A stretch of 64,000 nt of DNA from an uncultured virus (IMG/VR IMGVR_UViG_3300010282_000326) (IMGVR_UViG_3300010282_000326), one strand, 5' to 3'; positions 9-64,000 are shown, counted from the stretch's first letter. Program-made: numbers and translations. The notes: generated by a model from the sequence alone, not told the origin.

Positions 9-986
9 ATGACTTTCGTAACCGATATGGAGTCAACAATGACTGAAGGCTCAAATGAAAAAGTAGCTTTCAAAATGAGTGCTGATATAGATGTTGTAGG
101 AAATAAGACAGCATCTCATGCAACTGGAAACATGGCTATTGATGTTTTAGGAATGCAAAGCACTCAAGGGGTAGAAACCTACTCAGTTCTTGAAGATGAC
201 GGTACAATTACAAATTACTCTTTAGACACCTTAAAGGGTGCTTGGACAAAGGAAGTGAATAGTGCAGGTAATTCTTTTGATACCAGTACTTATATGAATT
301 CTATGAAGAGTGATTATTTTACAGACCTTAATCTTGAAGAAACAGAAGAGGGGTATGTAGTTACTGGTAATATCAGTGCAGGTTATCTTAGTGATTCTCT
401 TATGGATGCAACTGGTGAGTATGCTAATATGACATCTGTAGATGATGAACAGCTTGTATTCGTAACCTTAACATTTGATAAGGATACAAAGGAGGTTAAG
501 AAACTTGTATTTGATATGGGTAAGGCTATGGGTGATGCTGAAAAGCTCAATGTAAAAGAGTTTACTGTGACACTTGATATTCTTGGTTATAGTAAGGATG
601 CTGTTGAAGTTCCAGAGAGTGTAAAAACTAATGCAGTTGATGCTTCTGAGTTAGAAGATGTTGAAACAAGTACTCAGAGTGATGCAGCTCTTGACCTTGA
701 TAACACCCCACTCAATAAGTTATTTGGTCTTTCAGATAAGCCAGATGCTGAAGAAGTAAAGCTTTATGGAAATGGTAGTTTCGATAATGCTTCTGATGAT
801 GTTGTAAATGTTATAGTTCAGTTATCCACTATGACAATGACAGAAATCAATGAAAAATATCTTGCAAAGTATTCAGAGCAGGATGACAATACAAAAGATG
901 CTATAGCCTATATAGTTAAGGCAGGTTGGATAACTCTTGATGAAACCTCGGATGAGTTAACCGAACGAATTAAGAATTTAAAGTAG
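9..986 (+). CDS. Acidic secreted/lipoprotein-like protein (LolA/DUF6612-like beta fold suspected), probably 5'-truncated by the window edge
   Basis: Frame is open from the window start. Beta-strand-rich pattern typical of Clostridial lipoproteins. Followed by a terminator. Confidence 0.5.
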   Translation: MTFVTDMESTMTEGSNEKVAFKMSADIDVVGNKTASHATGNMAIDVLGMQSTQGVETYSVLEDDGTITNYSLDTLKGAWTKEVNSAGNSFDTSTYMNSMKSDYFTDLNLEETEEGYVVTGNISAGYLSDSLMDATGEYANMTSVDDEQLVFVTLTFDKDTKEVKKLVFDMGKAMGDAEKLNVKEFTVTLDILGYSKDAVEVPESVKTNAVDASELEDVETSTQSDAALDLDNTPLNKLFGLSDKPDAEEVKLYGNGSFDNASDDVVNVIVQLSTMTMTEINEKYLAKYSEQDDNTKDAIAYIVKAGWITLDETSDELTERIKNLK

Positions 987-991
987 TCACT

Positions 992-1020
992 AAGGGGTAG
1001 CATCTAAGGTGTTACCCCTT
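992..1020 (+). terminator. Intrinsic terminator-like hairpin
   Basis: aaggggtagcat-ctaag-gtgttacccctt inverted repeat just after the stop codon. Confidence 0.7.
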
Positions 1021-1073
1021 ATTATTTTAGGGGGAGAAATTGGGGTAGCCAATGTAAGTGAGGAAGAAGAATA

Positions 1074-3417: not shown

Positions 3418-4167
3418 TTGGAGGTGTTTTGGTTGATAATTTGTATTATAGGTAAAACGAATTCAGGTAAAGATACTGTAGCAAATTATTTACATGAAAA
3501 ATATGGTATTGAGTTGGTTTGTAGTTATACTACAAGACCTAAAAGACCTCAGGAAACAAATGGGGTAGAGCATTACTTTGTTTCTAAAGAGGAATTTGAT
3601 AAAATAATAAAGCAAGACGATGTTTTAGCGTACACAATAAATGATAAAACAGGTATAGAATATGCTGGAACTTTGCAGAGTATAAAAAGTGACACTTGTA
3701 TATACATTATCAACCCAGAAGGTTTAGTTTGGATGAAAGAACATTTTCCAGACCAAGTTATAGTTTCTCTTTATGTATATCTTGATGATGAGACTATATT
3801 AAAGCGTGGAGAACTTCGTGGAGACAATATAGATGTTCTAAATCAAAGACTAAGTAGCGAAAAGCAGGAATTTGATTCCTTTTACGCATCAGGTAAGTTT
3901 GATTTTGTTATATCAAATACAAGGTCTAAAGAGGAACTTCTGAAAGGTGCTGACTTATTTTATAAAGCACATATTGAGTATAAAAGAAGATTTTTAGAAT
4001 GCTATAATAAGGTTTTTGATGAAAATGGTGCTATGAAGCCTTGTGGAAGAGATGCTTGTATTGATTTACTTGATGTAGTTTACAAGTATAATGATGGGGA
4101 TTTCGGAAATAAGAAAACAGGTCAGTTAAATGTTGATGAGATTGTTAAGTTGAGGAAACAGTTATGA
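3418..4167 (+). CDS. gmk: Guanylate kinase-like protein with C-terminal extension (likely start TTG 3433)
   Basis: P-loop GKTNSGKDT; SYTTRPKRPQETNGVEHYFVS GMP-binding signature. Confidence 0.85.
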   Translation: MEVFWLIICIIGKTNSGKDTVANYLHEKYGIELVCSYTTRPKRPQETNGVEHYFVSKEEFDKIIKQDDVLAYTINDKTGIEYAGTLQSIKSDTCIYIINPEGLVWMKEHFPDQVIVSLYVYLDDETILKRGELRGDNIDVLNQRLSSEKQEFDSFYASGKFDFVISNTRSKEELLKGADLFYKAHIEYKRRFLECYNKVFDENGAMKPCGRDACIDLLDVVYKYNDGDFGNKKTGQLNVDEIVKLRKQL

Positions 4168-6571: not shown

Positions 6572-7924
6572 ATGAGTGATATGTTAGATGATGGTCTTGG
6601 TTCTTTTCAAGAAGATTATGATGAAGTGTTTACGGGTGATGAGCGTGTAAGTAATTTATTGAAATTGACCTCTGATAGCTTCACAAGAGAAAAGAGAACA
6701 ATTAAGATTAAGGAGATAGGTTTTACAGACCCTATAAAGAAGGGTAGGCAGGATACATTATCAGGATTAACAAAAACTATTGCCGATTTAGGTATTCTTC
6801 AACCTATCCATGTTATGACTGTTTCTGAAGAGTCAGAGGAAGATGATTATAAGTATATTCTTCTTGATGGGCTTAGAAGAGTGTTTGGAGCAGCGAAGAA
6901 TGGGATAGAGGAAGTTGATGCTATTGTTTGGGATTTTAAAGACAAAGATTTAGGTATGGATTTAGCTGTTTATATTACTTTACTTCTTAATCGTAATCAG
7001 AGAAGAGATTGGAAAGAGAATTGGCACTATTATCAAATACTTGAATTACAGTCCTCAGTTATGACTCCAGGCACTATAGAATATTTACTTCAGCTTGAGG
7101 GCGGTGATGCTATGAAGTTGAAGGATGTTATGTTATGTAATTATGATGAAGTTAAGCAGGCTCTTTTAAATGGAGAGAAAGGTTTAGATGCTTGTTATAA
7201 GATGTTAGCAAAGCTTCGTAAGGAAGAAGATAAACTGGCTATGGAGGATGCAACTGGGGTAGATGATTCTATTGAAGGAGTAGAAAATTTAACTTCTGGT
7301 GAGGGTGGATTACCTCAGTTGAGTGACGATGATGTTAAAGAGTTGCTTGATATGGTTGATGATTTAGATGAAGATATGGATGTTGATGAGGATGACTTTG
7401 ATTCAATGAATAGGTCATCATTTGGTGATGAGCAGCAAAAGGTTGGAGAAAGACATCCATTAGACCCAGCTTTACGTCAAGCAGTTTTAGCAAGAGATAA
7501 GTTTGTTTGTAAGTGTTGTGGTATGAAGCTTATAGGTGCAAGACTTGGTCTTATTGCAGTACATCATGTTTTACCAGTTCATACGGGTGGTAAAGATACA
7601 TTAGATAATCTTGTTACTCTTTGTGTAGGTTGCCATTTAAGTTTGCATATTATGGAGCGAAATGGTGGTTCTATTATGATGAGTAAGGAAGATTATGAAG
7701 CATTACCAGAAAGTGAACAGACATCACTTAAGAAAGCTCTTAAGTTGGCTCGTATTGCTATTGAGGCTGATAAGCGTAAGGGGTTAAGTAAGGAAGATGT
7801 TGCTAAGGCTACCGCTGATGCCATAAGACATCCTATGCCAGGTGCAGGTATGAAAGATAATCAGACTGCTTATGCTATTGAAGGTCAAAAGCAAGCACAG
7901 GAGGAGGAAGAAGATGACGAGTGA
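6572..7924 (+). CDS. ParB/Srx N-terminal domain fused to an HNH endonuclease
   Basis: LTKTIADLGILQPIHV...YILLDGLRRV (ParBc); VLARDKFVCKCCG...VHHVLPVHTGGKDTLDNLVTLCVGCH (HNH). Confidence 0.85.
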   Translation: MSDMLDDGLGSFQEDYDEVFTGDERVSNLLKLTSDSFTREKRTIKIKEIGFTDPIKKGRQDTLSGLTKTIADLGILQPIHVMTVSEESEEDDYKYILLDGLRRVFGAAKNGIEEVDAIVWDFKDKDLGMDLAVYITLLLNRNQRRDWKENWHYYQILELQSSVMTPGTIEYLLQLEGGDAMKLKDVMLCNYDEVKQALLNGEKGLDACYKMLAKLRKEEDKLAMEDATGVDDSIEGVENLTSGEGGLPQLSDDDVKELLDMVDDLDEDMDVDEDDFDSMNRSSFGDEQQKVGERHPLDPALRQAVLARDKFVCKCCGMKLIGARLGLIAVHHVLPVHTGGKDTLDNLVTLCVGCHLSLHIMERNGGSIMMSKEDYEALPESEQTSLKKALKLARIAIEADKRKGLSKEDVAKATADAIRHPMPGAGMKDNQTAYAIEGQKQAQEEEEDDE

Positions 7925-24917: not shown

Positions 24918-24950
24918 AGAGGGGTAGTCGAAAGGCTACCCTTTTATTTT
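24918..24950 (+). terminator. Intrinsic terminator
   Basis: gaggggtagtc-gaaa-ggctaccctttt. Confidence 0.75.
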
Positions 24951-38070: not shown

Positions 38071-38421
38071 GGGGTATTCAGGTTTCGACAGGGATTTGAA
38101 GGCTTATTCTACACTTAGGTTGGTAACCTTTAATAACCAAATAAAATAAACGCTAACGATAGAGTAGCACTTCAGGCAGCAGCGTAGTCTGCTAGTCAGA
38201 GCCAAAAAGGTAGTCGGGTGACTAGACTATTTGAGGTTCAAAAAAAGTCACTTACTGTTGAATTCCAGATTCTTTAAGAAAGCGGAGATGTATGCAAAAT
38301 CGGTGCAAGGTCATACGAGTGAGTGCATAGGAAGAAGTTAGACACGAAGACTGAGAGATGAGTGTAGTAAGGGATATGCTAGTAGGATTTTTGGACAGGG
38401 GTTCGATTCCCCTATACTCCA
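38071..38421 (+). ncRNA. ssrA: tmRNA
   Basis: 5' ggggtat..tttcgac and 3' gacaggggttcgattcccctatactcca with G3.U70; tag frame 38152-38187 encodes ANDRVALQAAA*. Confidence 0.95.
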
Positions 38422-45733: not shown

Positions 45734-45735
45734 AT

Positions 45736-46347
45736 ATGAAAATGCTAGTTAAAATTGGCTTTTGGTTTTATATGCTAATTAGTGTTAGTTTAGATGTACC
45801 TTTAATAATGCAGTTGCCAGATTATCCTACTGGTTGTGAAAGCGTTGCAGCAGTTATGGTTTTGCAATATTATGGTTTTGATATTGATTGCGAGACATTT
45901 ATAACTGAGTATTTAGATACAACAAATGAAGTATATGATGGTGTTATGGATGACTATTTTTTAGGAAACCCAAAGAGTTCAGGTGGTTGGGCTTGTAATC
46001 CATCAGTTATATGTAATGCAGTTAATAAATATTTTCAAAAGATAGATGAAAAAGAGTTAAGTGCGTATGACTTAACTGGGACAGACTTTAATCTTCTTAT
46101 GTATGAGGTTGCAGATGAGCATCCAGTGTTAATATGGGTTACTATCGATTATGTAGAACCATATCTAAAAGAGGGAAGTTGGGGTAGTCACTATAATCCA
46201 AGTCATACTGTAGTGTTAAAGGGATTCAATAAAGATACAAATGAAGTATATATAAATGACTCTTTGAAAGGCGATATTACTTTACCTTATAATGATGTGA
46301 AGAATATTTATGATAAGGTTGGTAAAAAGAGTTTAGTCATTAAGTAG
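45736..46347 (+). CDS. C39-like cysteine peptidase
   Basis: LDVPLIMQ...PTGCESVAAVMVLQY; SHTVVLKG; VYINDS. Confidence 0.88.
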   Translation: MKMLVKIGFWFYMLISVSLDVPLIMQLPDYPTGCESVAAVMVLQYYGFDIDCETFITEYLDTTNEVYDGVMDDYFLGNPKSSGGWACNPSVICNAVNKYFQKIDEKELSAYDLTGTDFNLLMYEVADEHPVLIWVTIDYVEPYLKEGSWGSHYNPSHTVVLKGFNKDTNEVYINDSLKGDITLPYNDVKNIYDKVGKKSLVIK

Positions 46348-46352
46348 AAAGG

Positions 46353-48647: not shown

Positions 48648-48670
48648 TATAAGAAAGTGAGGATGACAAA

Positions 48671-49957
48671 ATGGCGATAACACAGGAGTTTGAAGATTAT
48701 AATACTGGTTCGTGTACGATGGCTGAGTTTTATGATGATTTAGAGGCTAAGTTAGCTCTTTTAACTGGCTTAGTTGATTATTCGGAAGTAGGACTCACTT
48801 TAACAGATGTTAGAAAGCCTATGTTTGTATCAGCAGACCCAGGTGTTGGTAAGACAATGGGAGTTATATCAGTTATAAAGGCTATGAATGATAGGCTTAA
48901 GAATTCTGGTAAAGGTGATATACAGTTAGGATTCAAAAAGATTCTTCTTGGTCAGACTGTTGTAGGTTCTTTATCAGGTATTCCAGTTGCAGTTGATGGT
49001 GATATTAAGAGAGCAGCAGCTCCAGAGTTACCAGTAGCTGAGAAAGATGGAGAGTATGGGGTACTTTTCTTAGATGAAATTACTACTGCTGATGAGATGC
49101 AGATACAACCTGCATTAGGTCTTGCAGATGATTCAAGAAGTATTGGTCTTTATAAGTTACCAGAGCATTGGCTTGTAGTTGCAGCAGGAAATGGACCAAA
49201 TTGTACTAACTTTAAGAGAATGGATGATATGACATTGAGTCGTTTCATCACTTACAATATAAGTTACAATTATAAAACAGACTGGAGACCTTGGGCACAC
49301 AAGAACAATATTAACCCAGATATAATTGCTTTTCTTAACTTCAGTCCAGATGCTTGTTCAAGAGTTGAAAGTACTGACACTGATGAGGCTGGTAAAATGG
49401 CACCAAGTCCTCGTACTTGGGAGGCTTTAGATAAGTATATTAAGACAAGAAAAGCTATGGGTAAGCCTATTACAGATAGTAATATGACTGCATTTGCTTC
49501 AAGAGTTATTGGTGTAAAGGCAGCGAGAGAGTTTGGTGCATTCTTAGCTTTCAAAACAAAAGTAAAATATGACCCAGCTAAGATTCTTGATGGTACTGAA
49601 GATGCACCATCTATTATGCAGAAAGAGGAATTTCATATTCTACTTCAGGGTTGTATAAAGGCAATGTTACAAGAAATGCATAACCCAGAAAATATACAGA
49701 AGCAAAGTGGTGATGACATCACATATACTATGGATGTATATCAGAAATTTGCAAATATGTTAAACTGGTTCTTGGAGATGAAAGACCTTGAAAATACTAT
49801 AAATGCTATTACAGAACTTAGAGACGATATACCAGAGGCAAGTGCTATTATGCTTGACCCAGACTTTGATACATTATGTCCTAAGTTTAATGAGTTCCTT
49901 TTAGAGCATGACGAACTTATATTAAATAACTTAGCAGATATAGAGTCTATTATGTAA
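48671..49957 (+). CDS. MoxR-like AAA+ ATPase
   Basis: Walker A ADPGVGKT, Walker B VLFLDEI, VVAAGN, SRF, PSPRTWE; adjacent to the vWA gene. Confidence 0.88.
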   Translation: MAITQEFEDYNTGSCTMAEFYDDLEAKLALLTGLVDYSEVGLTLTDVRKPMFVSADPGVGKTMGVISVIKAMNDRLKNSGKGDIQLGFKKILLGQTVVGSLSGIPVAVDGDIKRAAAPELPVAEKDGEYGVLFLDEITTADEMQIQPALGLADDSRSIGLYKLPEHWLVVAAGNGPNCTNFKRMDDMTLSRFITYNISYNYKTDWRPWAHKNNINPDIIAFLNFSPDACSRVESTDTDEAGKMAPSPRTWEALDKYIKTRKAMGKPITDSNMTAFASRVIGVKAAREFGAFLAFKTKVKYDPAKILDGTEDAPSIMQKEEFHILLQGCIKAMLQEMHNPENIQKQSGDDITYTMDVYQKFANMLNWFLEMKDLENTINAITELRDDIPEASAIMLDPDFDTLCPKFNEFLLEHDELILNNLADIESIM

Positions 49958-49973
49958 TTTGGAGGTGACTGAT

Positions 49974-50978
49974 ATGCCATATATTATAGTAGCAAATTTT
50001 AAGAGTAAAACAAGTCAGTGTGCTTGTTTACAGATATCAGAAGAGTTAGATGTTGTAGGAAGTTTTGGGGTACTTACTTTAGATAATCTTGGTAAGTTTA
50101 CAATACAAAACAATTTAACTCCACTTAACTTTTCAGTAGATAGAAATGGAGCAGTAAAGCAAGATTGGGGTAGTTTTTCTCGATTTGGACAGGGTGTTGT
50201 AGGTATTGCTATTGCTGAGATTGTAGATAGAATTACTCATAAAACTGTAGGTTATCGAGTAGTTTCTTCTCAGACTCCAGCAGCTAGAAATCTTCGTATA
50301 GATGATATTCTGAATAAAGAAAAGCAGTATGGTAGACCATTCTTACAAAATATGATGGTAAGGGGCGGTGCAGTAACAAATTACCCTATGAAAAAGCTAC
50401 CTATTTATACAACAAATAGTAATAGGGCTAAAAGAAGTCATCAGCCAGAGGTTAAAGACAGACCAATATCTGTTGAGAAACCTAAGAGAGTTGAGGAGAA
50501 TAAAGTATATACTGATGCTCAGTTAGTTGAAATATCTAATGCAAGGAAAAATGGTGTTGATGTTGCTTTAATTTCTAATCCAGATTTACAACCAGAGCAG
50601 ATGAGAGTTCTTTGGGCTTCAAAGAAAAATGGTGCTTTAGCTGAGTATTATTCTAATCCGAAATTTAGTACTGATGCTATGAAGTTCTATGCTGATGTTC
50701 TTTACAATAAGGATACGGTTAATAAATTTAGATATACTTTAAAGAAGCCAGAGTTAACTGTACCTCAGCTTCAGGCTATATATGCTTGTATTATTGCTAA
50801 TGTTGATTATAGAGACCTTGTTAATCTTTCCGCAGCAGAAATTGATGTAGAAAGAATAAAGAGGGAGCAGAACTTTTGGAATTCTGAAGAGACGCAAATG
50901 ACAGAGCAGGAAATAGAAGATTTTGATTATAGTCTATTTTCAAAGATTGAAAAATATGTTAGAAAAATAAAGGGTTGA
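49974..50978 (+). CDS. Hypothetical protein with C-terminal helical repeats
   Basis: YTDAQLVEI...NGVDV...SNPDLQPEQM and NGAL...YSNPKFSTDAM repeats; SD ggaggt. Confidence 0.75.
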   Translation: MPYIIVANFKSKTSQCACLQISEELDVVGSFGVLTLDNLGKFTIQNNLTPLNFSVDRNGAVKQDWGSFSRFGQGVVGIAIAEIVDRITHKTVGYRVVSSQTPAARNLRIDDILNKEKQYGRPFLQNMMVRGGAVTNYPMKKLPIYTTNSNRAKRSHQPEVKDRPISVEKPKRVEENKVYTDAQLVEISNARKNGVDVALISNPDLQPEQMRVLWASKKNGALAEYYSNPKFSTDAMKFYADVLYNKDTVNKFRYTLKKPELTVPQLQAIYACIIANVDYRDLVNLSAAEIDVERIKREQNFWNSEETQMTEQEIEDFDYSLFSKIEKYVRKIKG

Positions 50979-50982
50979 TGTT

Positions 50983-52698
50983 ATGTATATAGCTGTTGGT
51001 AAGGTCGAAAATAATATATCAGTTTTAGATACTGCTGATGGTGTTATCGAAAGTTTTGAAAAGGATACTCTTTCGGGTATCCTTTCTTCAGGTGTAACTA
51101 TCTTAGGTGTGACTTTAGATAGCTTACTTGTAAATTCTTTGGCTTATGTTTATATTAGATACAGTATTGATGGTGAGGATATTGATTTTGATGGTTATGC
51201 TTCATTTAATGCTAATGAGGTACCAGATTATTACTATCAAATTGTATATTTGAAAGATATTAAGTCAGAAGTAGACACTAAAAAGAAAGTAAATACTTTA
51301 ATAAGTCATTTAAGAGTATTAAATAAGGATAGCGATAAACGATATGATATTTCAACTGCTTCAGTTACTGATACTGTTGTAAATTATGATGGTTTAGGTT
51401 TTGATTTAGCTTCTGGCGAGTTTGAAGATATAGCAACGATTTTATGTGATTTATACTATAATAATTGCAAATATGGTGGTTTAGATTATATAAAAGGTAC
51501 TGGAAATTACTATATAGGTGTTAAGTTTGGTAGTTGTGTAGTAAAGCTTGATGATTTTATCTTTGAATCATGGGGATATGAAGATGCTTATGAAAGCACA
51601 CCATATACAGACCATATAAGTGTAATTTCTGACATTACTTTTGCAGAATGTGATTGGCTTGATATAGATAAATATTTTAATGGCGATAAAGCTCAAATAT
51701 TATCAGATTGTTATTATTTACCACTTTATAATATAAAGCGAAATGTAGTTGAAACAAATACAGAGTTTTCTACTATAAATGATTTTACAAAGAGAATAAC
51801 AGGGGTAGATAATGTAAATGTTTATACAGATGATGAAACAATGTCTTTGACAGAGTATTATCACTATATATTAGCTTTTCCAGAAAGTCCTTATTCTAAT
51901 GAAGTAGAAAAGAATTTTAAGATATATTTAGCCAAATTAAAATTACTTAAGCAGACAACTAAGCTAAATCCTTACTTTAATTCTTATCTGACAAAAAATG
52001 GAACACACATTACTGAGAGTAGCTTTGGAAAGACTAATAAGAATTATAGAAGTATTATAGCTACACCTTTTGGTGTTATAGAAATAGAAAATAATGAGTA
52101 TGCAAAGAATTATGATACTATATTCTTTACACGACTTACTCATACAGGTTGCACTTGGTTAGAAACTGGTTCAAATCAAGTGAAATTTGGGGCACAGAAG
52201 CAGTTAAATGATAGTTATGGTGATTATGATAGATTTTTGTGTGAAAAACGCTTACTACAGTTTTTTGATGATTGTTGTGAGTCTGAGATAAGTTATCATG
52301 ACCATAAGATAATTCCTTTAGGGGTTACAAGTGTATATTGTGAAGAAGGCTATATAGAAATTGATGTAGTTTGTGTTGTTAATTATGATGGAACAAATGC
52401 AAGGAAAAGAGGGGGTAGTCCAGATAGGTCAGATTATTGGTGGTGTAGTTTTGGTTTATCTCCAGTTTATATGCCTTTAATTTTCTTAGGTAATAAGGTT
52501 GAACATTCAAATGGTTATTACATTTTTAGATTAGGTTTACAAAATGTGTACATACCAGATTCAGCGATAAATCATTTAAGTGGTTGTTTTACAAATTATA
52601 ATATTTTAGGCGACTTTTTACAGCCAGCAAGACGAAAGCCAGATAAAAAAATGTATGATAATACTTTAAAGCTTATTGAAAAGGAGATGAAGGCATGA
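50983..52698 (+). CDS. Hypothetical protein with N-terminal DTxD module
   Basis: ISVLDTADGVIESF...GVTILGV. Confidence 0.8.
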   Translation: MYIAVGKVENNISVLDTADGVIESFEKDTLSGILSSGVTILGVTLDSLLVNSLAYVYIRYSIDGEDIDFDGYASFNANEVPDYYYQIVYLKDIKSEVDTKKKVNTLISHLRVLNKDSDKRYDISTASVTDTVVNYDGLGFDLASGEFEDIATILCDLYYNNCKYGGLDYIKGTGNYYIGVKFGSCVVKLDDFIFESWGYEDAYESTPYTDHISVISDITFAECDWLDIDKYFNGDKAQILSDCYYLPLYNIKRNVVETNTEFSTINDFTKRITGVDNVNVYTDDETMSLTEYYHYILAFPESPYSNEVEKNFKIYLAKLKLLKQTTKLNPYFNSYLTKNGTHITESSFGKTNKNYRSIIATPFGVIEIENNEYAKNYDTIFFTRLTHTGCTWLETGSNQVKFGAQKQLNDSYGDYDRFLCEKRLLQFFDDCCESEISYHDHKIIPLGVTSVYCEEGYIEIDVVCVVNYDGTNARKRGGSPDRSDYWWCSFGLSPVYMPLIFLGNKVEHSNGYYIFRLGLQNVYIPDSAINHLSGCFTNYNILGDFLQPARRKPDKKMYDNTLKLIEKEMKA

Positions 52699-52907
52699 CA
52701 CAAGAAGAATATGTTTTATGTTATGTTGAAAGATATGGAATAACTAATTATAGAGTAAAAGATGGTAAGATAATATTTAATGTTTCATATCCAGCTTACT
52801 TATCAAATCCAAGAGTTACTTATCAGCATATATATGATATTAAAACTGGAAAAGAAGTTGTTAAGCAGTTGAAAAGATATGATAAGGGTGGCGAACAGAA
52901 TAGATAA
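52695..52907 (+). CDS. Hypothetical protein
   Basis: SD aaggag; ATGA coupling. Confidence 0.7.
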   Translation: MTQEEYVLCYVERYGITNYRVKDGKIIFNVSYPAYLSNPRVTYQHIYDIKTGKEVVKQLKRYDKGGEQNR

Positions 52908-52913
52908 TATGGC

Positions 52914-52951
52914 AGAAGTCAGAATTAATTTAAGTTAGTTCTGACTTTTTT
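52914..52951 (+). terminator. Intrinsic terminator
   Basis: agaagtcagaattaat-ttaa-gttagttctgactttttt. Confidence 0.75.
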
Positions 52952-52986
52952 AATGCTAAAATATTTTCTTATCTGATTTAGAAAGG

Positions 52987-53235
52987 ATGATTTATTTGGG
53001 TAAGAAAAAGAAATTACGAGAATTGAAAAAATATAAGAAGGAATTACAGCTAGAATATAATTCATATAATAATACATTAAGTTTTTTGAATAGTGAAATA
53101 TCACGAGTTAATAAACTTGAAAGTATAGGTAAGGAAGATATAAAGTATGAAATAGATATCATTAAGACTAAAATTAGAAAAGTAACAAAGAAGATGGAGA
53201 AAGCTAAAGAAGAATTAGATGGTTTAGAAATTTAA
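52987..53235 (+). CDS. Small coiled-coil protein
   Basis: K/E-rich heptads. Confidence 0.6.
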   Translation: MIYLGKKKKLRELKKYKKELQLEYNSYNNTLSFLNSEISRVNKLESIGKEDIKYEIDIIKTKIRKVTKKMEKAKEELDGLEI

Positions 53236-53449
53236 AGTTAATTTAACTTTACTGAGGGTTTGTTGACCTTTGCATTTTCATTCTATTTTTCTTTTGAAAA
53301 CTATATAAGATTATATAGTATTTAGCTTAATTTAGTTTGAAAATTTCTTAAGATATGGTCATTTTAAGAAATTTTTTATTTTTTACAGTTTTTGAACTGT
53401 ATTTTAATAACTAGTTTACTGTGTTAGTTAAATAAAGGAGTGATAGAGT

Positions 53450-54529
53450 TTGAATTATGAACTTTTAAAGATTCTTATTCAGTTAAATTTTCTTCCTATC
53501 TGTATAAGTATCTTTTTAATATATTTTTTTAATATCAATAAAAGCTATGATAGTAAATCAGTACAAAGATTTCAGGTTATAGTTGTTCAACTTTTGGTAT
53601 TACTTTGTATAGATAGTTTAGATTATATATGCATTGAATATAATGATACAACTATCTGGCATACACTTGTAGTTGTTATAGGCTATGATTTAAGATTATT
53701 TATTATGGCAGGTGTTACAGATATAGCAATAGAGCGTCTTGAGTATAGCAAGAGTAATTATGTTTACATCTTAGCTGGCTTGAACGCTTTAATTTTATTA
53801 TTAACTTTCTTTACAGACCTTGTTTTTGAATTTAATGCAAATGGAGAAGTTGAAAATAATCTCTTGGGGTACACCCCACATATAATAGAATTGGGGTATA
53901 GTATTATTTTAATAGTTTTAGTTATAAAACTTTTTTATATAAGACATAAAAATGAAGCTGAACTTATATTATTTTGTTTAATATTAACTTTATTAGCGAC
54001 TTATCTTGAGCATTGTTATGATTTACGAGGTTTGTTAACTAGTGTTATTGCTTTTACTATAATATTTTATTATTTATATATTCATATTGAGCATTTTAAA
54101 TTTGATAATCTTACTAGAGCTTTAAATAGGGACTCTTTTTATGCAGATGTTAAATCTTTAGGAAAAGAAAAAATAACTGCTATAATGAGTATTGATTTAG
54201 ATGGCTTAAAAGAAACAAATGATACCAGAGGGCATCAAGCAGGTGATGAGTTATTATTAAATACTACTAGAGTTATACAAAAGTCTTTATATACTGGTTG
54301 TTATCTGTATAGAGTTGGTGGGGATGAATTTACAATACTTTGCGTTAATTATGGAGAAGTAGAGGTAAAAAATCTAGCAACTAAGATATTAAATAATATA
54401 GAAAAAGCAGGCTTAAGCGTATCTTTGGGGTATGCAATGTGGTTTGGAAATAAAGATTTTGAAGAAGTATATCATGAAGCAGATATTAAAATGTATGAGA
54501 TGAAGGAAATAAATCATGCAAATAGATAA
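53450..54529 (+). CDS. Membrane-bound diguanylate cyclase
   Basis: About 7 TM helices, then DNLTRALNR, IDLDGLKETNDTRGHQAGDELL, YRVGGDEF, ADIKMYEMK. Confidence 0.93.
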   Translation: MNYELLKILIQLNFLPICISIFLIYFFNINKSYDSKSVQRFQVIVVQLLVLLCIDSLDYICIEYNDTTIWHTLVVVIGYDLRLFIMAGVTDIAIERLEYSKSNYVYILAGLNALILLLTFFTDLVFEFNANGEVENNLLGYTPHIIELGYSIILIVLVIKLFYIRHKNEAELILFCLILTLLATYLEHCYDLRGLLTSVIAFTIIFYYLYIHIEHFKFDNLTRALNRDSFYADVKSLGKEKITAIMSIDLDGLKETNDTRGHQAGDELLLNTTRVIQKSLYTGCYLYRVGGDEFTILCVNYGEVEVKNLATKILNNIEKAGLSVSLGYAMWFGNKDFEEVYHEADIKMYEMKEINHANR

Positions 54530-54621
54530 TAACTTTATAGTTAGTTATTTTTAGTTTTTTAATTATTTTAACTTTGCATATATTTCTAATTTATATAGTT
54601 CTTTTAGAAAGGAGACTTATT

Positions 54622-55047
54622 ATGTTTTATGTTTCGGCTAAGAAAGGTGATAAATTTGGAATAACTGATACTAATGATGGTGTAACTGAATTTTATACCT
54701 TAGACTATATAAGAAAAATTCAAAAACTTGGACATAGCATGGCAGGTCTTACTGAAACAGGTAATTGCTATGTTTTAAGTAAGAAGTTGGCAACTTTATG
54801 GTATTTCACTAAAGGAATGGGAGTTCGAGTTAAACTCAGTAAAGATTTAGACTGGAAACAAACATTATTCATGGGGTACAAAGAGAAAGATGGTCTTTTA
54901 ACTTTTTATTTTGCTGATGGTGATGGTTTAAATGGTTATTTTGGCTTAACATCAAAATTTATAACAAACTCAGGGGTAGACTTTGATTATAGAAATAATG
55001 ACCCAGTTGAGTGTACTAAAATAAAAGAAAGGATAGCAAGGGTATGA
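54622..55047 (+). CDS. Hypothetical protein with N-terminal DTxD module
   Basis: MFYVS...FGITDTNDGVTEFYT; SD aaggag. Confidence 0.8.
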   Translation: MFYVSAKKGDKFGITDTNDGVTEFYTLDYIRKIQKLGHSMAGLTETGNCYVLSKKLATLWYFTKGMGVRVKLSKDLDWKQTLFMGYKEKDGLLTFYFADGDGLNGYFGLTSKFITNSGVDFDYRNNDPVECTKIKERIARV

Positions 55048-55910
55048 TACCAGAACAATTTAAGAATTTCAAAAGCTATTCAAGATATAGAGGTTTTAGT
55101 GATAAATATGATTTATCTGATGAGTATTTTGCAACTATTGTAAATGGCAATCTTTTATGTACAGATACAGAATGTGATATTGATTGCGATGGTAATATTT
55201 GTTTAGTTACTCCAGAAGGTGATTGTTTTCATATAGGTACTATACCTCAAACTGAAGATGGTTCAAAGCCAGTATTTTCATTTGATGGTAATCACACCTT
55301 AGTTGTTAAATATAAGGTATATTATGATAATGACCACCATCATGGTGATTATGAAACTATAAAGTGTCCTTTAGTTGTGACATCAGATATGATTATAAAG
55401 CTGAAGTTTAGAAAAATTGTTTGGTTTTTAGGTAAAGAATGTCATAATGCTTATCAAGGTGGAAGGTATCGCAATACTTGTGATTTTTGGTGGGATACTA
55501 CAAAACTTAAAGTAGAGTTAACAGGAACTAGAAAATTGATGAACCGATATTCTTCTCCAGCTACTGATTATTTTACACAATATATTATTTATACCGAAAA
55601 CGGTTGGACTTTGCAACCAGATGAGAGTGGTAAGATGCAGGTTCAAGATGAAGTATTCAGGGATAGCCCTAAATTGTATAAATGTATTGAATCTTTAAAC
55701 TTTTTTAAGTATAGATTCTATATAAAAGAGTATAAGAATGGTAAATATAGTGTTATAGATAAGGCTGATAATGTAGAAGAATGGTACGATAGTACACAAA
55801 TTAAGGATTTTTATAAACAAGGTGTACAGATTTGTGGTGTTTTTGTTTTAAATGAAAAATTCTGCATTCAGCCAATAGTTGAAGATTTAGCAATGATAGG
55901 GAGGCTATGA
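55044..55910 (+). CDS. Hypothetical protein with C-terminal DTxD module
   Basis: RFYIKE...YSVIDKADNVEEWY...GVQICGV near the C-terminus. Confidence 0.75.
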   Translation: MIPEQFKNFKSYSRYRGFSDKYDLSDEYFATIVNGNLLCTDTECDIDCDGNICLVTPEGDCFHIGTIPQTEDGSKPVFSFDGNHTLVVKYKVYYDNDHHHGDYETIKCPLVVTSDMIIKLKFRKIVWFLGKECHNAYQGGRYRNTCDFWWDTTKLKVELTGTRKLMNRYSSPATDYFTQYIIYTENGWTLQPDESGKMQVQDEVFRDSPKLYKCIESLNFFKYRFYIKEYKNGKYSVIDKADNVEEWYDSTQIKDFYKQGVQICGVFVLNEKFCIQPIVEDLAMIGRL

Positions 55911-56251
55911 TGGGGTATCGTGAGACATTTTTTCAGTATAATCCAGGTGTAAAGTTACCTTTCAAGAGGGGTACTTGGTATCGTTGTAAAGGTTGTGGAC
56001 AGTGGTTTCAAAAGTCACAGATAACAGTTGACCATATTATTCCTAAGAGGAAAGGTGGAACTGATGACTTATGGAATTTACAGCCTATGTGTAAACATTG
56101 TAATTCAAGTAAAAGAGATAGACAATCAGGTTTTGAAACAACAAAAGCAGTCACTGGAGCATTAGTACATGGCGATTTAGGTCAGCTCGCAGGTAGTATG
56201 GCAAAGCGTAAAGCTATGGATGTATTTGGACTTAGATATAAAAGGAAGTAG
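55907..56251 (+). CDS. HNH endonuclease
   Basis: CKGCG...TVDHIIPKRKGGTDDLWNLQPMCKHCNSSK. Confidence 0.9.
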   Translation: MMGYRETFFQYNPGVKLPFKRGTWYRCKGCGQWFQKSQITVDHIIPKRKGGTDDLWNLQPMCKHCNSSKRDRQSGFETTKAVTGALVHGDLGQLAGSMAKRKAMDVFGLRYKRK

Positions 56252-56259
56252 GTGATTAT

Positions 56260-56448
56260 ATGGCAAGAAAAACTGATAGAGAAAGAGAGATGGAGGCTCA
56301 ACGCTTAGGTCTTTTTAAAGTTTATGTGAGAACATATTGCCCTACTGAAAAACGATATGGAAATAAATTAAGATTTTATAGAGGATATAAAACTTATGAA
56401 GAAGCTATGAGAGTTGTTAATTCTGACCCTCGGAGATTTTTTATGTAA
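56260..56448 (+). CDS. Hypothetical protein
   Basis: SD aggtg; 62 aa. Confidence 0.65.
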   Translation: MARKTDREREMEAQRLGLFKVYVRTYCPTEKRYGNKLRFYRGYKTYEEAMRVVNSDPRRFFM

Positions 56449-56464
56449 TAAAGGTGGTTAGTTT

Positions 56465-57283
56465 ATGTTTAGTTTAGACTCATTTCAAACTGTACAGAGT
56501 GAGAGCAGTAGTAAGGGAAATCAGCGAAAATTTTATAAAGATGGTTATTGGGTTAAATTAGATTCTGAACATTGCTGTCAAGGTTTGGCTGAAGATTTTG
56601 TTAGTCAGATTGAAAGATGTATCTCAGGTTTTAATTTTGTACCTTACAAAAGTTTACAAGTATCTTATCGAGATAATATGTATAATGCTTGCTTATGTAA
56701 GAATATGTATAATCAAGATGTTCAATTTATATCGTTGAGAAGTTTATTTAAACAAAATAAGATTCCATTGAACACCTTTATAAAGTATGATGATATAAAA
56801 GATAATATTAAAGCTGTTGTAGAAAAAGTTTACATCTTAACAGACTTAAATCTTTTAGAGTATTTTCGTGATTTGCTATTTTTAGATGCTTTGATTTTGA
56901 ATGAGGATAGGCATTATATGAACTTAGGTGTATGTTATTATGGAGAAAAATATTATATAGCACCTTGTTTTGATAATGGCTCAAGTTTATTTTGTGTTGA
57001 CTGGACATATAGAAAAAGAAAGAGTTTAGAAGAAAATATTGAATTTGCTAAAAGTGTAGCTCGACCTTTTTCAAAGTTTTATGATAAACAAATATCAGCT
57101 TTTCTTGAGTTAGGGGTAGCTCCTTTAAGAATAAATAGAGTTGCTTTAAATTGGTTATTACAAAACTATACTAATGAATTATATAGTGAGCAACAAGTTT
57201 TGTTAGTTAAGTCTGTACTTTATAATAGATTAAACTATTATAATGGAGATGGTAAGTTTGGAGGTTTGTATTATTATGTTTAA
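56465..57283 (+). CDS. HipA/CtkA-like Ser/Thr kinase (C-terminal kinase domain only)
   Basis: SSKGNQRK (P-loop), WVK, LDALILNEDRHYMNLG, APCFDNGSSL. Confidence 0.85.
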   Translation: MFSLDSFQTVQSESSSKGNQRKFYKDGYWVKLDSEHCCQGLAEDFVSQIERCISGFNFVPYKSLQVSYRDNMYNACLCKNMYNQDVQFISLRSLFKQNKIPLNTFIKYDDIKDNIKAVVEKVYILTDLNLLEYFRDLLFLDALILNEDRHYMNLGVCYYGEKYYIAPCFDNGSSLFCVDWTYRKRKSLEENIEFAKSVARPFSKFYDKQISAFLELGVAPLRINRVALNWLLQNYTNELYSEQQVLLVKSVLYNRLNYYNGDGKFGGLYYYV

Positions 57284-57629
57284 TACTGATTATAGTGTAA
57301 AAGTTTATCTTAAGAATGATTTAATATCTGAAATTTTTGTAAAAGATGGTTCTGTAGATTTTAAGAATTATTCAAGTAAAACGATATTCTTACCATTTGG
57401 TGTTCAAACTTCTGCTACTATTGAGGATTTAGAAGAGTTTTATGAAGATAGATGTTTCCCACGAGAGCGTGATAATTGCAATCAAATATTAAGAGACCTC
57501 GGACTTAATTGTTATGAGCCTGAGTTAATATGTAGAAAAACTCATGGATTACAATTTGATGATTTTGTGTGGTTACAATTTTCAGATGAGCCACAAGTAA
57601 CTTGGGATGAAATAAAATTGCGAGATTGA
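57276..57629 (+). CDS. HipA N-terminal-subdomain-like (HipS-like) protein
   Basis: FYEDRCFPRERDN...ILRDLGL...KTHG...DDFVW; overlaps the kinase stop. Confidence 0.65.
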   Translation: MFNTDYSVKVYLKNDLISEIFVKDGSVDFKNYSSKTIFLPFGVQTSATIEDLEEFYEDRCFPRERDNCNQILRDLGLNCYEPELICRKTHGLQFDDFVWLQFSDEPQVTWDEIKLRD

Positions 57630-57641
57630 TGGGGTGATTAT

Positions 57642-58214
57642 ATGTTTTATGTGTCAAGTATAAAAGAGCCTTTTCATATAGCAGAGTGGCAAGGTACAAC
57701 TTTATACAATAAAATAGGCATTACAGATACTGAAGATGGAAAGGAAGAGTTCTACACTAATAATGAGGTACTTAAGTTTATAAAAGAAAAGAATATAAAC
57801 ATATATGGTACATATTGTTACGGTGTCAATAAGTATAGAATGTTTGTTTTTGCTACACCTATGGAGTTTGATGTAAAAGTTAGCGAAAGTAAACTTAAAG
57901 CTCTATTTAAGACAAATAAAGAACGGCATAATCCTTGGTCTTTGTATCCTATTGAAGATTATTTAGCAAGTCTAGGGGTAGCTACAAAGATTATTATTTT
58001 TTATTCTTATGTTGGTGATGGTGATAGAAGACGACATAGCTCAAGAGCAGAGTTTGTAAAAAGAGATATTGATTCTTGGTATTATGAAGATAAAGATAAT
58101 GCTTTTAGTGGTGATATAGTTGATTCAAGAGGTGCAGCTAATTTTATGGATTATCCAAGTTGTTGTATGACAGATTTAGCTGTTTTTCCAAGTGTTAAGT
58201 ATCATAATGTTTAA
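57642..58214 (+). CDS. Hypothetical protein with N-terminal DTxD module
   Basis: MFYVSS...IGITDTEDGKEEFYT...NINIYGT. Confidence 0.8.
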   Translation: MFYVSSIKEPFHIAEWQGTTLYNKIGITDTEDGKEEFYTNNEVLKFIKEKNINIYGTYCYGVNKYRMFVFATPMEFDVKVSESKLKALFKTNKERHNPWSLYPIEDYLASLGVATKIIIFYSYVGDGDRRRHSSRAEFVKRDIDSWYYEDKDNAFSGDIVDSRGAANFMDYPSCCMTDLAVFPSVKYHNV

Positions 58215-60845: not shown

Positions 60846-62234
60846 ATGAGCATAAGAAAATGGGGTGTACTTAAAGAGAATGGTAAGTTAGTTAATATAG
60901 ATAACCTTGACAAGTCATATAAAGGTAAGGTAATTTGCTATGATACAAATTGTCATTGTGATTTAATATTGAATATTGGGGAGAAAAAAGACCCATATTT
61001 TAGGCATCCAGCTAATATTGATTGTCAAGGTGGTTCTGCTGAGTCTATCTTACATAAATTAGCCAAAGATGTTATAGCTAACTCTATCAAACTTTATGTT
61101 CCAAGTTGTCAGTATGGTGCAACAACTGATAGATTAGTTAATGTTGACCAAGAATATTTGGTTGATGTAAAGTCTTGTGAAGTTTATATCGAAGCACCGC
61201 TTATAGAGGATAGTTCACTCAAGCCAGATGTAGTTTTAGAGACTTCAAGTGGTGAATTATTCTGTGTAGAAGTCTATGTTGCTCATAAAGTTCCAGAGTC
61301 AAAAATCAATAAGTATATGAATTTAAGTGGTAGTTTCCATGTTATAGAAATTGATTTGCGAGAGTATAAGGATATAGATAAATATTCTTACGAAGAGTTG
61401 GCAGATGCAATAACTATGAAAGCATCAAGAAAAATCATAGCTTCAAATAATCTTGCAGATGTGATAAAAAGAGTTAAAGATGCAGAATTTTATGCTACAG
61501 GTGATAAAGCTATTTGTCCTTGTCAAAATGCTGTAGTCAGTACAAAAGATTGTAGGTTCTGTGCATTTTATATAAACTCTTCAAGGGGTACTATGAAATG
61601 TCTTGGAAAAGGTTGTTACAGTAAGGCTTCTGATATCGAGAAGAATAGAAGTGCTGAAGAATTATATGATATTTATTGTGAGGGTGTTCCAGAGCCTATT
61701 GGAGAAATAGATTATAATGTAAATAAGACACCTTTTGGCTTATGTAAGAAATGTAATGAGCCTTTAGTTCTTGCGATGGGTTATGACGATGAGGATAATT
61801 ATAATAATATTATAGCAGGTCTTACAGTTATTCATAAAAAGACAAGTTCTGCATTTACATATTGTCCTAATTGTAATGAATATCATAAACTTGAATGTCC
61901 AGTATGTAAAAAGGAAAACAAGGCAAGACTAATAGGCTACGATATTAAAGTGAAGAAGAATAGAAAGAAAGGAAATGTTTACCTTTGTTGTGAAAACTAT
62001 AGAACTGCCGAAAGTTTTGCAAGACATGGTAGAGATTTAGAATATGCTCATAATTATTCATTATCTGTGTACACAAGTACCCCAATCAAGAATAATTATA
62101 CAGATGAAATTTTAGCTTGTGACCTTAATACTTTCTTAACAAAGCCAGAAAAGGCTGAAAAGATATTAAGTGAGGTTAGAGGCTTTAACGAAACAAAGGG
62201 GTACAAGTCAGAAACAGGAGTTTATCAAAGATAA
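60846..62234 (+). CDS. CoiA-like PD-(D/E)xK nuclease with C-terminal zinc ribbons
   Basis: PYFRH...ESILHKLAK; KPDVV...CVEVYVAH; multiple CxxC pairs. Confidence 0.75.
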   Translation: MSIRKWGVLKENGKLVNIDNLDKSYKGKVICYDTNCHCDLILNIGEKKDPYFRHPANIDCQGGSAESILHKLAKDVIANSIKLYVPSCQYGATTDRLVNVDQEYLVDVKSCEVYIEAPLIEDSSLKPDVVLETSSGELFCVEVYVAHKVPESKINKYMNLSGSFHVIEIDLREYKDIDKYSYEELADAITMKASRKIIASNNLADVIKRVKDAEFYATGDKAICPCQNAVVSTKDCRFCAFYINSSRGTMKCLGKGCYSKASDIEKNRSAEELYDIYCEGVPEPIGEIDYNVNKTPFGLCKKCNEPLVLAMGYDDEDNYNNIIAGLTVIHKKTSSAFTYCPNCNEYHKLECPVCKKENKARLIGYDIKVKKNRKKGNVYLCCENYRTAESFARHGRDLEYAHNYSLSVYTSTPIKNNYTDEILACDLNTFLTKPEKAEKILSEVRGFNETKGYKSETGVYQR

Positions 62235-62245
62235 GGGGGTAGTTT

Positions 62246-62983
62246 ATGCGTAGTGTATCGTTTTGTTTACCGTGTTATAATGAGGCTAGTCGAGGTGATT
62301 TTAATGCTCGATTAACTTTATTATATAATTATATAGTTGAAAATGTAGATGATTTTGAGTTGATTCTTATCAGTGATGGCAGTACTGATAATACAAAGGA
62401 TATTATTCTACAATTTAGAAAGACTCATGAGAATGTTGTAGCTAAGATTTCAGAGAAAAATTTTGGTAAAAGCTATACTTTGAGAAAGGCTATTTCTTAT
62501 GCAGAAAAGGAACTTTTCTTTTTCATGGATGCCGACCTTAGTACAGGTCTTAATTTTATTAAAGTATTTATAGAAAATTGTAAGCCAGATACTTGTGTTG
62601 TAGGCGATAGATTTATGAATAATTCTGTAGTACAAAGAAGTGATATTTTCAGAAAAGGTTTGTCTTTTTTTAGTAGATTTATTATAAAGAAGTTTTTTAA
62701 ACTTGATGTAAAAGATACACAATGTGGATTTAAATGCTTTAATACTGCTGATTTAAAGAAAATAAATCCTTACTTTGTAAGTAGTAAGTGGCTTTTAGAT
62801 ATAGAGATGTTAATTTATCTAAATGAATTAGGGATAGAAATCATTGATTATCCTATTGTTTGGAATTCAGATTTGAAACCTACTTTTAATTCATTACATG
62901 GTGCTTTAGTTTCAGGGTTAGAACTTTTAAGAATATTGGTGATAAAGAATGCAAAGATTAAAAGAATTAAAGAAGGAATTTAG
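62246..62983 (+). CDS. Family 2 glycosyltransferase (polyprenol-phosphate sugar synthase-like)
   Basis: LPCYNE, DGSTDNT, NFGK, FMDADLS, DTQCGFKCF, WLLDIE. Confidence 0.92.
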   Translation: MRSVSFCLPCYNEASRGDFNARLTLLYNYIVENVDDFELILISDGSTDNTKDIILQFRKTHENVVAKISEKNFGKSYTLRKAISYAEKELFFFMDADLSTGLNFIKVFIENCKPDTCVVGDRFMNNSVVQRSDIFRKGLSFFSRFIIKKFFKLDVKDTQCGFKCFNTADLKKINPYFVSSKWLLDIEMLIYLNELGIEIIDYPIVWNSDLKPTFNSLHGALVSGLELLRILVIKNAKIKRIKEGI

Positions 62984-64000
62984 TGGTTGGGATATTATAT
63001 TTTGCTATTTAATATTAGCTATATTAGCCTTATATAAAATGGATGGTTACAATAAGTATCTCAGCAGTGATTTACAGTTCGTATTTAACAGGTTATCTCA
63101 GATGAGGTCTTGTATAGCAGACGGAAAATACCCTTTCTTTTACTATCACGATTTATTTGAAACGGGGTATGGTTCATCATTCTTTTATGGTCAGTTAACT
63201 TTATTTCCTTTTTTACCTATAATAAACTATAAAGTTTTTACTATGATATACATTGTTACTGCTTTAACAGTTACTTATGTTGGTTTAAAGACTTTATATA
63301 AAAGATTTGCTTCAAATTATAAAGAGTTAGCAATAATAACTGTAATGTCAAGTTTTGGGCTTCATCTTTATTTTGATTATAACACATTGGCTTGTAATAT
63401 TTTAGCTATCGGAATGAGTTTATTTTTTATTGCTTTTATTGTTGATTTCTTTCGAGATGGTAAGAGTTTTTGTAAAGCTGTTATAATGTTTGGGTTAATT
63501 ATATACTCACATTTAATAACAGCACTAATAAGTTTCATAATTTGTGTTGTGGTATTTATCTATTATTTTGATAAAACCAGATTAAAAGAGTATATTAAGT
63601 TTGCTATATGTTGTTGCATAGTTTCTGCTTATTTTATATGTAATTTTTTATATCATTCAGTCACATTAGACAGTACACGGTTATCAAAAATTAATGAATC
63701 GACTAGTAATATTGAGACATTTTATATGTCAAATTATCTTTTTGAAACTAAAGTAGTTGACTTTTATAGTGGTAATATAGCAAATCAAAACTATTCATTT
63801 ATGAGTTTGATTATGTTCATTACTCTTATAGTTTGCTTTATAAAATATAATAGAAAGTATTGGAAACATTTAATTTGTTGCTTTATTTTATTATTTACTT
63901 GTACAGATTTTGGTTGGAAGTTTATACATCAGTTTTTTACAACTAGGATACAGTTCCCAACAAGGTATGATTTATTTATAGTTGTATTATTTATTGGTAT
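62949..64000 (+). CDS. Polytopic membrane protein, GT-C-like (PTPS-related/YfhO-like), runs off the window end
   Basis: Hand translation from ATG 62949: MQRLKELKKEFSGWDIIFCYLILAILALY...DLQFVFNRL...GKYPFFYY...GYGSSFFYG, followed by many TM helices. Confidence 0.65.
   Translation, partial: MQRLKELKKEFSGWDIIFCYLILAILALYKMDGYNKYLSSDLQFVFNRLSQMRSCIADGKYPFFYYHDLFETGYGSSFFYGQLTLFPFLPIINYKVFTMIYIVTALTVTYVGLKTLYKRFASNYKELAIITVMSSFGLHLYFDYNTLACNILAIGMSLFFIAFIVDFFRDGKSFCKAVIMFGLIIYSHLITALISFIICVVVFIYYFDKTRLKEYIKFAICCCIVSAYFICNFLYHSVTLDSTRLSKINESTSNIETFYMSNYLFETKVVDFYSGNIANQNYSFMSLIMFITLIVCFIKYNRKYWKHLICCFILLFTCTDFGWKFIHQFFTTRIQFPTRYDLFIVVLFIG

Follow-up and report, generated by a model that had tools for sequence, protein, structure and literature searches.

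We analyzed a stretch of 64,000 nucleotides (the window) from an uncultured virus (IMG/VR IMGVR_UViG_3300010282_000326), along which a short G-rich word, GGGGTA, most often followed by G or C (GGGGTAS), recurs on one strand. This window belongs to a contig of 272,762 bases that carries its exact proteins, and it apparently comes from an uncultured huge phage with a Gram-positive-type host. Its GC content is 31.7%, its GC skew lies between +0.21 and +0.37 in each 4-kb bin, and all 62 non-overlapping open reading frames (ORFs) of at least 100 amino acids are on the + strand; the three minus-strand ORFs listed are each overlapped by a longer + ORF. The ORFs come from a mechanical list made without a gene finder, and stretches called intergenic may contain small genes. 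AGGAG or GGAGG lies upstream of the start codons, and the RNA genes of the window are one for transfer-messenger RNA (tmRNA) and two for tRNAs. Among the recognised proteins are an NAD-dependent ligase, RNase H, HU, an SSB-like protein, a MoxR-type ATPase with a VWA/metallopeptidase partner, and a ClpX-like ATPase, while numerous ORFs have no family assignment.

An exact count over the whole window gave 82 copies of GGGGTA on the + strand, the first at 168 and the last at 63164. The original prediction, an earlier reading made from the sequence alone, had put the number at roughly 80, and all 12 example positions that it named are in the list; its statement that the reverse complement TACCCC occurs about twice, at 1013 and 62078, was exact. 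Markov models of order 0, 1, 2, and 3 predicted 13.0, 11.1, 12.1, and 22.4 copies on the + strand, where the earlier composition-based estimate had been on the order of 10. An order-4 model predicted 59.4 copies, a value that is high because the model draws on 5-mers that belong to the word and are already over-represented (GGGGT, 99 seen versus 58.5 expected; GGGTA, 120 seen versus 76.5 expected). GGGGTA had the top order-1 z-score among all hexamers (21.3) and ranked first among the 30 words of composition G4A1T1, the others of which occurred 2 to 47 times; the runners-up GGGTAG (47) and AGGGGT (37) both overlap it, and the reversed word ATGGGG was found 25 times. When synonymous codons were shuffled with all proteins and the pooled codon usage kept, 10.6 ± 3.1 copies were obtained (maximum 22, n = 1000), compared to 72 in the 62 ORFs, and a shuffle of codon order gave 9.0 ± 3.0 against the same 72. 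The word thus passed the check for a by-product of codon or dipeptide usage. On the C-poor + strand 1.2–1.4 copies of TACCCC are expected and 2 were seen. This rarity fits composition, and the 82:2 contrast therefore adds no evidence for polarity; the finding lies in the + strand excess. Hence, the strand polarization originally claimed was borne out for the + strand excess, while the scarcity of TACCCC is predicted by composition and does not add to it. GGGG without TA after it was depleted (52 versus roughly 98 expected).

The base after GGGGTA was G in 41 copies, C in 21, T in 15, and A in 5, and the flanks were otherwise nearly without information. GGGGTAS occurred 62 times on the + strand and once on the minus strand, whereas dinucleotide shuffles yielded 4.31 ± 2.04 copies (maximum 10, n = 100), to be compared with the 63 on both strands. 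Relative to frame-matched controls, A at the seventh position was avoided in frame 0 (P = 1.5e-5) and frame 1 (P = 0.003), and C was preferred over T in frame 2 (P = 0.01). None of the 11 frame-1 opportunities with Lys next was used. No single-letter variant of GGGGTA exceeded 1.9 times its expectation and several were depleted (GGGGAA, GGGGGA, and GGGGTC at 0.3, 0.1, and 0 of expectation). The actual word is the exact seven-letter GGGGTAS. A context-dependent mutation process was rejected as the source of the word, as precursor words are rarer than the product, and so was avoidance of a restriction site, which is unable to make the orientation found here more frequent. The copies and the sites with a particular structure are the following.

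168..63169, + strand: dispersed set of 82 copies of GGGGTA, 62 of them GGGGTAS (exact count)
GGGGTA starts 1-21, + strand: 168, 350, 994, 1042, 1934, 3307, 3562, 4198, 5169, 5718, 6198, 7256, 8571, 8934, 9345, 11042, 11272, 11580, 13962, 15437, 17317
GGGGTA starts 22-42, + strand: 18112, 19961, 19994, 20890, 21398, 22667, 23187, 23472, 24005, 24290, 24921, 26396, 27107, 27560, 29332, 30327, 31298, 32788, 33893, 34536, 35669
GGGGTA starts 43-62, + strand: 35906, 36677, 37601, 38071, 39090, 40015, 40368, 40833, 41832, 43131, 43345, 44469, 46181, 46599, 46779, 47790, 48418, 49058, 50067, 50167
GGGGTA starts 63-82, + strand: 51802, 52412, 53866, 53893, 54427, 54873, 54973, 55912, 55968, 57113, 57975, 58332, 58832, 59946, 60115, 60561, 61585, 62198, 62236, 63164
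62077..62083, minus strand: the sole minus-strand GGGGTAS (exact count)
994..1018, + strand: hairpin after the first ORF, GGGGTAgcatctaaggtgtTACCCCt, with a copy as its 5' arm (read from the sequence, unfolded); the partner arm of this copy has the TACCCC at 1013, which the original prediction had placed in a terminator stem
24921..24946, + strand: hairpin followed by T's, downstream of nrdD, GGGGTAGtcgaaaggCTACCCtttta, with a copy in its 5' arm (read from the sequence, unfolded)
38071..38076, + strand: copy forming the first six bases of the phage tmRNA gene

As had been noted, the word uses all reading frames and non-coding DNA: 34 copies are in frame 0 (GGG GTA), 23 in frame 1, and 15 in frame 2, and 10 are outside ORFs, in 11.5% of the window, so that its density is equal in coding and non-coding DNA. 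Of the 115 Gly-Val dipeptides 34 are encoded by GGGGTA, and in frame 1 the word fills 23 of 51 opportunities. Gly-Val is present at 1.5 times its expected frequency in the window proteins and Val-Gly at 0.88 times, and the protein sequences themselves appear shifted to supply the word. The gaps between copies have a mean of 778 bases and a coefficient of variation of 0.66, compared to 0.98 for random placement (0 of 5000 placements as low), and the largest gap is 2382 bases (P = 0.006). At least one copy is found in 46 of the 62 ORFs, close to the 42.7 ± 2.4 that the gap distribution alone gives (P = 0.12); the other 16 genes have none, and the positions of copies within genes are flat. Selection is on the nucleotide word and not on the protein, and the placement of the word is set by DNA and not by genes. 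A rule of one copy per gene was rejected, the gene hits being explained by spacing along the DNA. We also rejected a Shine-Dalgarno-like role, as the starts use AGGAG/GGAGG, only 2 of the 82 copies are within 35 bases upstream of a start codon, and GGGGTG, a better match to the anti-Shine-Dalgarno sequence, was seen 5 times (0.7 times expectation).

We compared the window with its relatives, using among other sequences the SmpB protein, which is encoded along with the tmRNA gene.

38071-38424, + strand: tmRNA gene, tag ANDRVALQAAA
43272-43715: SmpB gene

SmpB homologues with 53–62% identity are present on IMG/VR contigs of 51–332 kb, and homologues with 63–75% identity in the protein database are on contigs of up to 293 kb, suggesting that huge gut phages carrying tmRNA and SmpB genes for trans-translation form a clade. 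Near-identical DNA is present in contigs from bovine, sheep, and other gut metagenome runs, with at most 0.45 of the sampled words in common. The window was not found in phage, viral, metagenome, or genome contig collections; the viral contigs were searched with an exact 46-mer, an alignment, a 1574-amino-acid protein, and the ClpX-like protein. The nearest relative was a protein at 70% identity found only in Logan and ENA, where relatives at about this level are on contigs of up to 111,680 bases. Two complete relatives (G001 and G002) have a GC skew of 0.12–0.25 in each 20-kb bin, with one polarity across 250–268 kb, and contain the word about as often as the reversed word: 30+2 versus 36+5 copies in G002 (268 kb, skew 0.215) and 8+73 versus 8+90 in G001. 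The distant relative G005 has 18 copies versus 22 of the reversed word. The largest excess of any word in G001 and G002 was about 5-fold (CACCTG, on both strands, and GACCCT), compared to 7- to 15-fold in the window. Because G001 and G002 share the skew and the one-strand layout but not the word, the skew and layout are traits of the clade and the word is not, and the strand bias is not produced by G skew alone. The relatives have one polarity throughout, and a flip of polarity with GC skew may therefore exist nowhere in such genomes. The AT skew is 0.17 in G001 and G002 and 0.02 in the window.

At sites aligned with two distant relatives the amino acids differed in 16 of 22 cases and the relative had the word in 1 of 22; relatives often have Gly-Ile or Gly-Leu instead of Gly-Val, and where the amino acids are the same other codons are used. 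The word is specific to this lineage. Overall, the central proposal of the original prediction was upheld: GGGGTAS is an oriented signal under selection, recurring about every 0.8 kb, and neither codons, dipeptides, nor G skew account for it. In IMG/VR, a scan for closely spaced sets of three copies returned at least 119 stretches, 80 of them with flanks, and the loci inspected were local tandem or collagen-like repeats and not dispersed copies. In a 20-kb locus of another IMG/VR contig (L124, 329,800 bases) TGGGATG was present 13 times on one strand and 0 times on the other (1.1 expected), and may be a similar polar word. The TTGCCGCG(A) word of an uncultured T4-like giant phage is polar too and has different letters from GGGGTAS.

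Which reader acts on the word? The original prediction offered three candidates, namely a primase site, a Chi-like recombination site, and a translocation or packaging signal resembling the FtsK orienting polar sequences (KOPS). The list lacked one rival, the site-specific nick motifs of phages, which are likewise confined to one strand (PMC3517423, PMC11780129). We tentatively favor GGGGTAS as a Chi-like polar signal for a DNA-tracking helicase-nuclease, by analogy with phages that are rich in Chi sites; we infer that the reader is a tracking nuclease, and likewise its reading direction and the benefit to the phage. An enzyme of the AddAB/RecBCD type, either the host's or one encoded by the phage outside the window, would enter at a DNA end or a broken fork, track along the DNA, and reach the word from the 3' side, on the G-rich strand. 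The encounter would switch the enzyme from DNA degradation to recombinational repair. With dense and even copies, no break in the 272-kb genome would lie more than about 2.4 kb from a protective site, and each further site would help slightly, making a stepwise accumulation plausible.

We rank a Chi-like signal first because the sharp short word, its independence of frame, the even spacing, the possible accumulation in small steps, and the presence in a single lineage match phage Chi best. Known Chi words have 5–8 letters and vary between bacterial lineages (PMC5959072, Table 3); GGGGTAS, too, is short, exact, and asymmetric, and it is over-represented and co-oriented along the replicon over the 64 of 272 kb covered. 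The closest precedents are phages without recombination modules, LLS of E. coli and MD8 of P. aeruginosa, in which, according to PMC12315714, a short exact asymmetric word occurs far above chance, in nearly a single orientation, about once per 1–2 kb, inside genes, and is absent from close relatives. The lambdoid phage LLS has 23 Chi sites, 20 of them in one orientation, or one per 1.86 kb, where 0.85 are expected, and the Chi sites of MD8 are oriented 32:0, while close relatives such as lambda are without Chi (PMC12315714). These phages differ from ours in that their word is the known Chi of the host, the reader is proven to be RecBCD, and the genomes have about 40–58 kb (PMC12315714, as above), whereas here the word is denser (1 per 0.78 kb) and even, the genome has 272 kb, and no host with the word was found.

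Several observations weigh against a Chi-like signal. The analogy with Chi-rich phages (PMC12315714) speaks for this candidate of the original prediction, but no bacterial genome was found to be enriched for the word. We counted GGGGTAG against the reversed word in 715 Bacillota genomes (401 Clostridia, 301 Bacilli, and 13 others), and in none of them was the word both enriched and polar; the top genome had 169 copies per Mb, on both strands and with an equally high control, compared to 641 per Mb on one strand in the window. The best ratio of word to control was 4.1, in the genome G266, which was rejected as host since the strands were mixed within contigs and GGGGTA was only 1.7 times the control. 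As a positive control, the known Chi GCGCGTG was 4.6- to 10-fold up in 18 of the 301 Bacilli (picked by eye), and the counting method is therefore able to reveal a real Chi. The host may lie outside the sampled genomes, or the reader may be a phage enzyme. In addition, no recombinase, helicase-nuclease, or RecBCD inhibitor was recognised in the 62 ORFs of the window, which makes up 64 of the 272 kb, and the PDDEXK_1 profile had no match in G001 and G002 and matched only in the distant G005. In LLS and MD8, Chi is concentrated toward one end of the genome (PMC12315714), whereas GGGGTAS is even. Word and transcript strand coincide, all genes being on the + strand, and a signal at the transcript level is also compatible with the data. 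Finally, a strain variant (47795 A>G, in runs X1 and X7, among the 40 of 745 differences listed) turns the site at 47790 into GGGGTG. GGGGTAS matches none of the Chi words in Table 3 of PMC5959072, and a full-text search, judged by titles and the starts of abstracts, returned no literature on GGGGTA as a polar genomic signal.

Alternatively, the reading system could belong to the phage itself. It is possible, though somewhat doubtful, that a helicase-nuclease, nickase, or primase encoded outside the window reads one strand with seven-letter specificity, with GGGGTAS as its self-mark or start point about every 0.8 kb, and that genome and proteins were reshaped in one lineage to about 350 sites, a number obtained by extrapolating the density of the window to 272 kb. 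Polar words read by strand-tracking or strand-specific enzymes are a kind of system already known; new are the word itself, how densely and evenly it recurs, and the visible changes in the proteins.

A rival reading, which we regard as unlikely, is site-specific nicking: in mature DNA the + strand would be cut at or next to every GGGGTAS by a nickase of the phage, much as the DNA of T5, phiKMV-like, and tf-like phages is nicked, with word and enzyme co-evolving. Nick motifs are the other known class of exact one-strand phage words: all 14 copies of TACTRTGMC in phage tf are on the top strand, with the bottom strand free of it, and relatives have 8–9, the word varying by lineage (PMC3517423). 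For 61 related Pseudomonas phages, PMC11780129 gives 88% of nick motifs in coding sequence, equal to the coding density and mostly on the coding strand, and 72 of the 82 copies of GGGGTA (88%) are likewise in ORFs, which cover 88.5% of the window. Thus, the motifs of tf, Rembedalsseter, phiKMV-like phages, and T5 are like GGGGTAS in being exact, confined to one strand, enriched, variable between lineages, proportional to coding sequence, and without known function (PMC3517423 and PMC11780129). They differ in having 9–18 letters and 9–14 copies per 45 kb, in being clustered, and in that the nicks were physically shown, while GGGGTAS is known from sequence alone (same sources). Two HNH-type nucleases of the window would be candidate nickases, and in four runs (38001-58000) about 7 of about 62 listed Logan contig ends were within 15 bases of a site, compared to about 3 expected, a count made by eye and post hoc.

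6572-7924: ParB_N-HNH fusion, HNH-type nuclease
55907-56251: HNH protein, HNH-type nuclease
43119, 43127, 43137: Logan contig ends beside the site at 43131
53863: Logan contig end beside the site at 53866

On the other side, GGGGTA is about four times denser than the tf motif (1.28 versus 0.3 per kb) and the word is shorter (7 versus 9–18 letters), whereas nick motifs have a long consensus of at least 9 letters and about 5–14 sites per genome. Known nick motifs cluster in one part of the genome (PMC11780129), and GGGGTA is evenly spread. If its density is the same throughout the 272-kb genome, nicking every 0.8 kb would break the + strand into roughly 350 pieces.

Lagging-strand priming is less probable still. 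Here a primase would start its primers (about ACCCC) at 5'-GGGGTA-3', and one good site would be kept per Okazaki-sized interval. The gaps, with a mean of 778 and a maximum of 2382 bases and more even than random, fit the lengths of Okazaki fragments. By the established skew rule the G-rich strand is the lagging-strand template, and the word is on this strand, if GC skew marks replication; the skew may instead reflect transcription, since all genes are on the G-rich + strand. In addition, with a GC content of 32%, a G-rich template could make for a stable primer. The site of T7 primase, 5'-GGGTC-3', resembles GGGGTA, and the sites of T7 gp4 share with it the G-rich start followed by T and one base, a possible location on the lagging template strand, and the Okazaki-size spacing. 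The T7 sites differ in that they are neither enriched nor polar in T7 and, to our knowledge, have a core of three letters, as do the primases known to us in general. In the T7 genome we counted 39 copies of GGGTC on the top strand (33 expected) and 55 on the bottom strand (31 expected), and 79 and 62 copies of TGGTC versus 41. Complete relatives with the same layout lack an enriched word, which means that the clade does not need one, and a primase demanding a rare seven-letter word would have been unable to work before the sites had accumulated. No primase was recognised in the window, and G001 and G002 gave no match to the DnaG zinc ribbon (only the distant G005 matched). For the primase candidate of the original prediction, spacing and strand thus fit, whereas the T7 pentamers have no comparable excess or polarity in T7 and the relatives lack an enriched word.

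We consider it very improbable that the word guides a directional DNA pump, loading or orienting an FtsK/SpoIIIE-type translocase for concatemer resolution, forespore entry, or packaging. KOPS and the SpoIIIE recognition sequences (SRS) are G-rich, polar, and uniformly oriented on bacterial replichores, and GGGGTAS resembles them in this. They also have eight letters, are far sparser, flip at the terminus, and are chromosomal, and no polarity switch occurs within the window. In a complete genome of the Bacilli (G411) GGGGTAG was polar by replichore, the first 100 sites listed all being on the + strand, so such words are available as direction marks, but the word was not enriched in it (326 versus 695 for the control). 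No translocase was recognised in the window. We know of no example of a guide word in a phage, and the literature found names none.

Equally improbable is an RNA signal, in which GGGGUAS, present in all transcripts, would be bound by an RNA-binding protein of the phage, make RNA polymerase pause, or mark processing sites. The strand of the word is the strand of the transcripts throughout the window, and the two are inseparable here. Operon polarity suppressor (ops) elements of the GGCGGTAG type share GGTAG and act on the non-template strand in transcription, which is a resemblance only. The word has no link to gene structure, as shown by the flat positions within genes, the 16 of 62 genes without a copy, and the gene hits explained by spacing. 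Its density is the same in non-coding DNA, and copies are located inside the tmRNA gene and in the insert between the two halves of nrdD. Nor is it a ribosome-binding site, given the AGGAG/GGAGG before the starts, the 2 of 82 copies close upstream of one, and the lack of enrichment of GGGGTG.

That the word is no signal and simply follows from G skew, codon usage, or dipeptide content has practically no probability left: the minus-strand count (2) is as composition predicts, G-rich words are commonly polar in Bacillota, and the order-4 model comes to 59.4, but that value is inflated by the word's 5-mers, the protein-preserving shuffle and the words of the same composition stay far below the observed 72 and 82 copies, relatives with similar skew lack the excess, and one-letter variants are not enriched, which excludes an artefact of composition.

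Enzymes that move along one strand leave a visible trace in oriented DNA words, few of which are known beyond model bacteria. GGGGTAS is unusually clean in that it has seven letters, is 15 times over expectation, appears strong enough to alter proteins, and is absent from the nearest available relatives; such a clean, exact word points to a specific reader that can be found. If, as in a Chi-like signal, the reader is the AddAB/RecBCD of the host, the word would be the first Chi from a group of gut Bacillota and would also mark the host of an uncultured huge phage. A phage enzyme as reader would instead mean a new system of self-marking, nicking, or priming, the phage's own counterpart of Chi or of programmed nicking, with a density so far unreported. 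Either way, it can be used now to recognise relatives of the phage in metagenomes.

Several other genes of the window stood out.

21079-21963 and 23651-24892: nrdD in two pieces, with a gap of about 1.7 kb that contains a GIY-YIG endonuclease (22016-23185)
34285-36357: unusually long ThyX-like protein (426 amino acids) adjoining an Amidoligase_2 enzyme
3418-4167: guanylate/dNMP kinase
26138-29268: 787-amino-acid protein with an ADP-ribosyltransferase domain, directly followed by a microbial-type PARG
16972-17928, 19727-20311, 29784-32321, 53450-54529: envelope and signalling genes
47484-47607: run of CAAGGTC within the VWA/metallopeptidase gene

The split of nrdD resembles an intron with a homing endonuclease, and Rfam called no intron at the gathering score. 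The ThyX-like protein, the Amidoligase_2 enzyme, and the guanylate/dNMP kinase, which is located away from the other two, may form a set for thymidine hypermodification, judging from their families, and the ADP-ribosyltransferase and PARG could be a writer-eraser pair, judging from their domains and order. The host-like envelope and signalling genes encode a sortase, signal peptidase I, a BspA-type leucine-rich-repeat protein, and a GGDEF cyclase. CAAGGTC was rejected as a second over-represented signal word, because its run is a Gln-Gly repeat in one gene.

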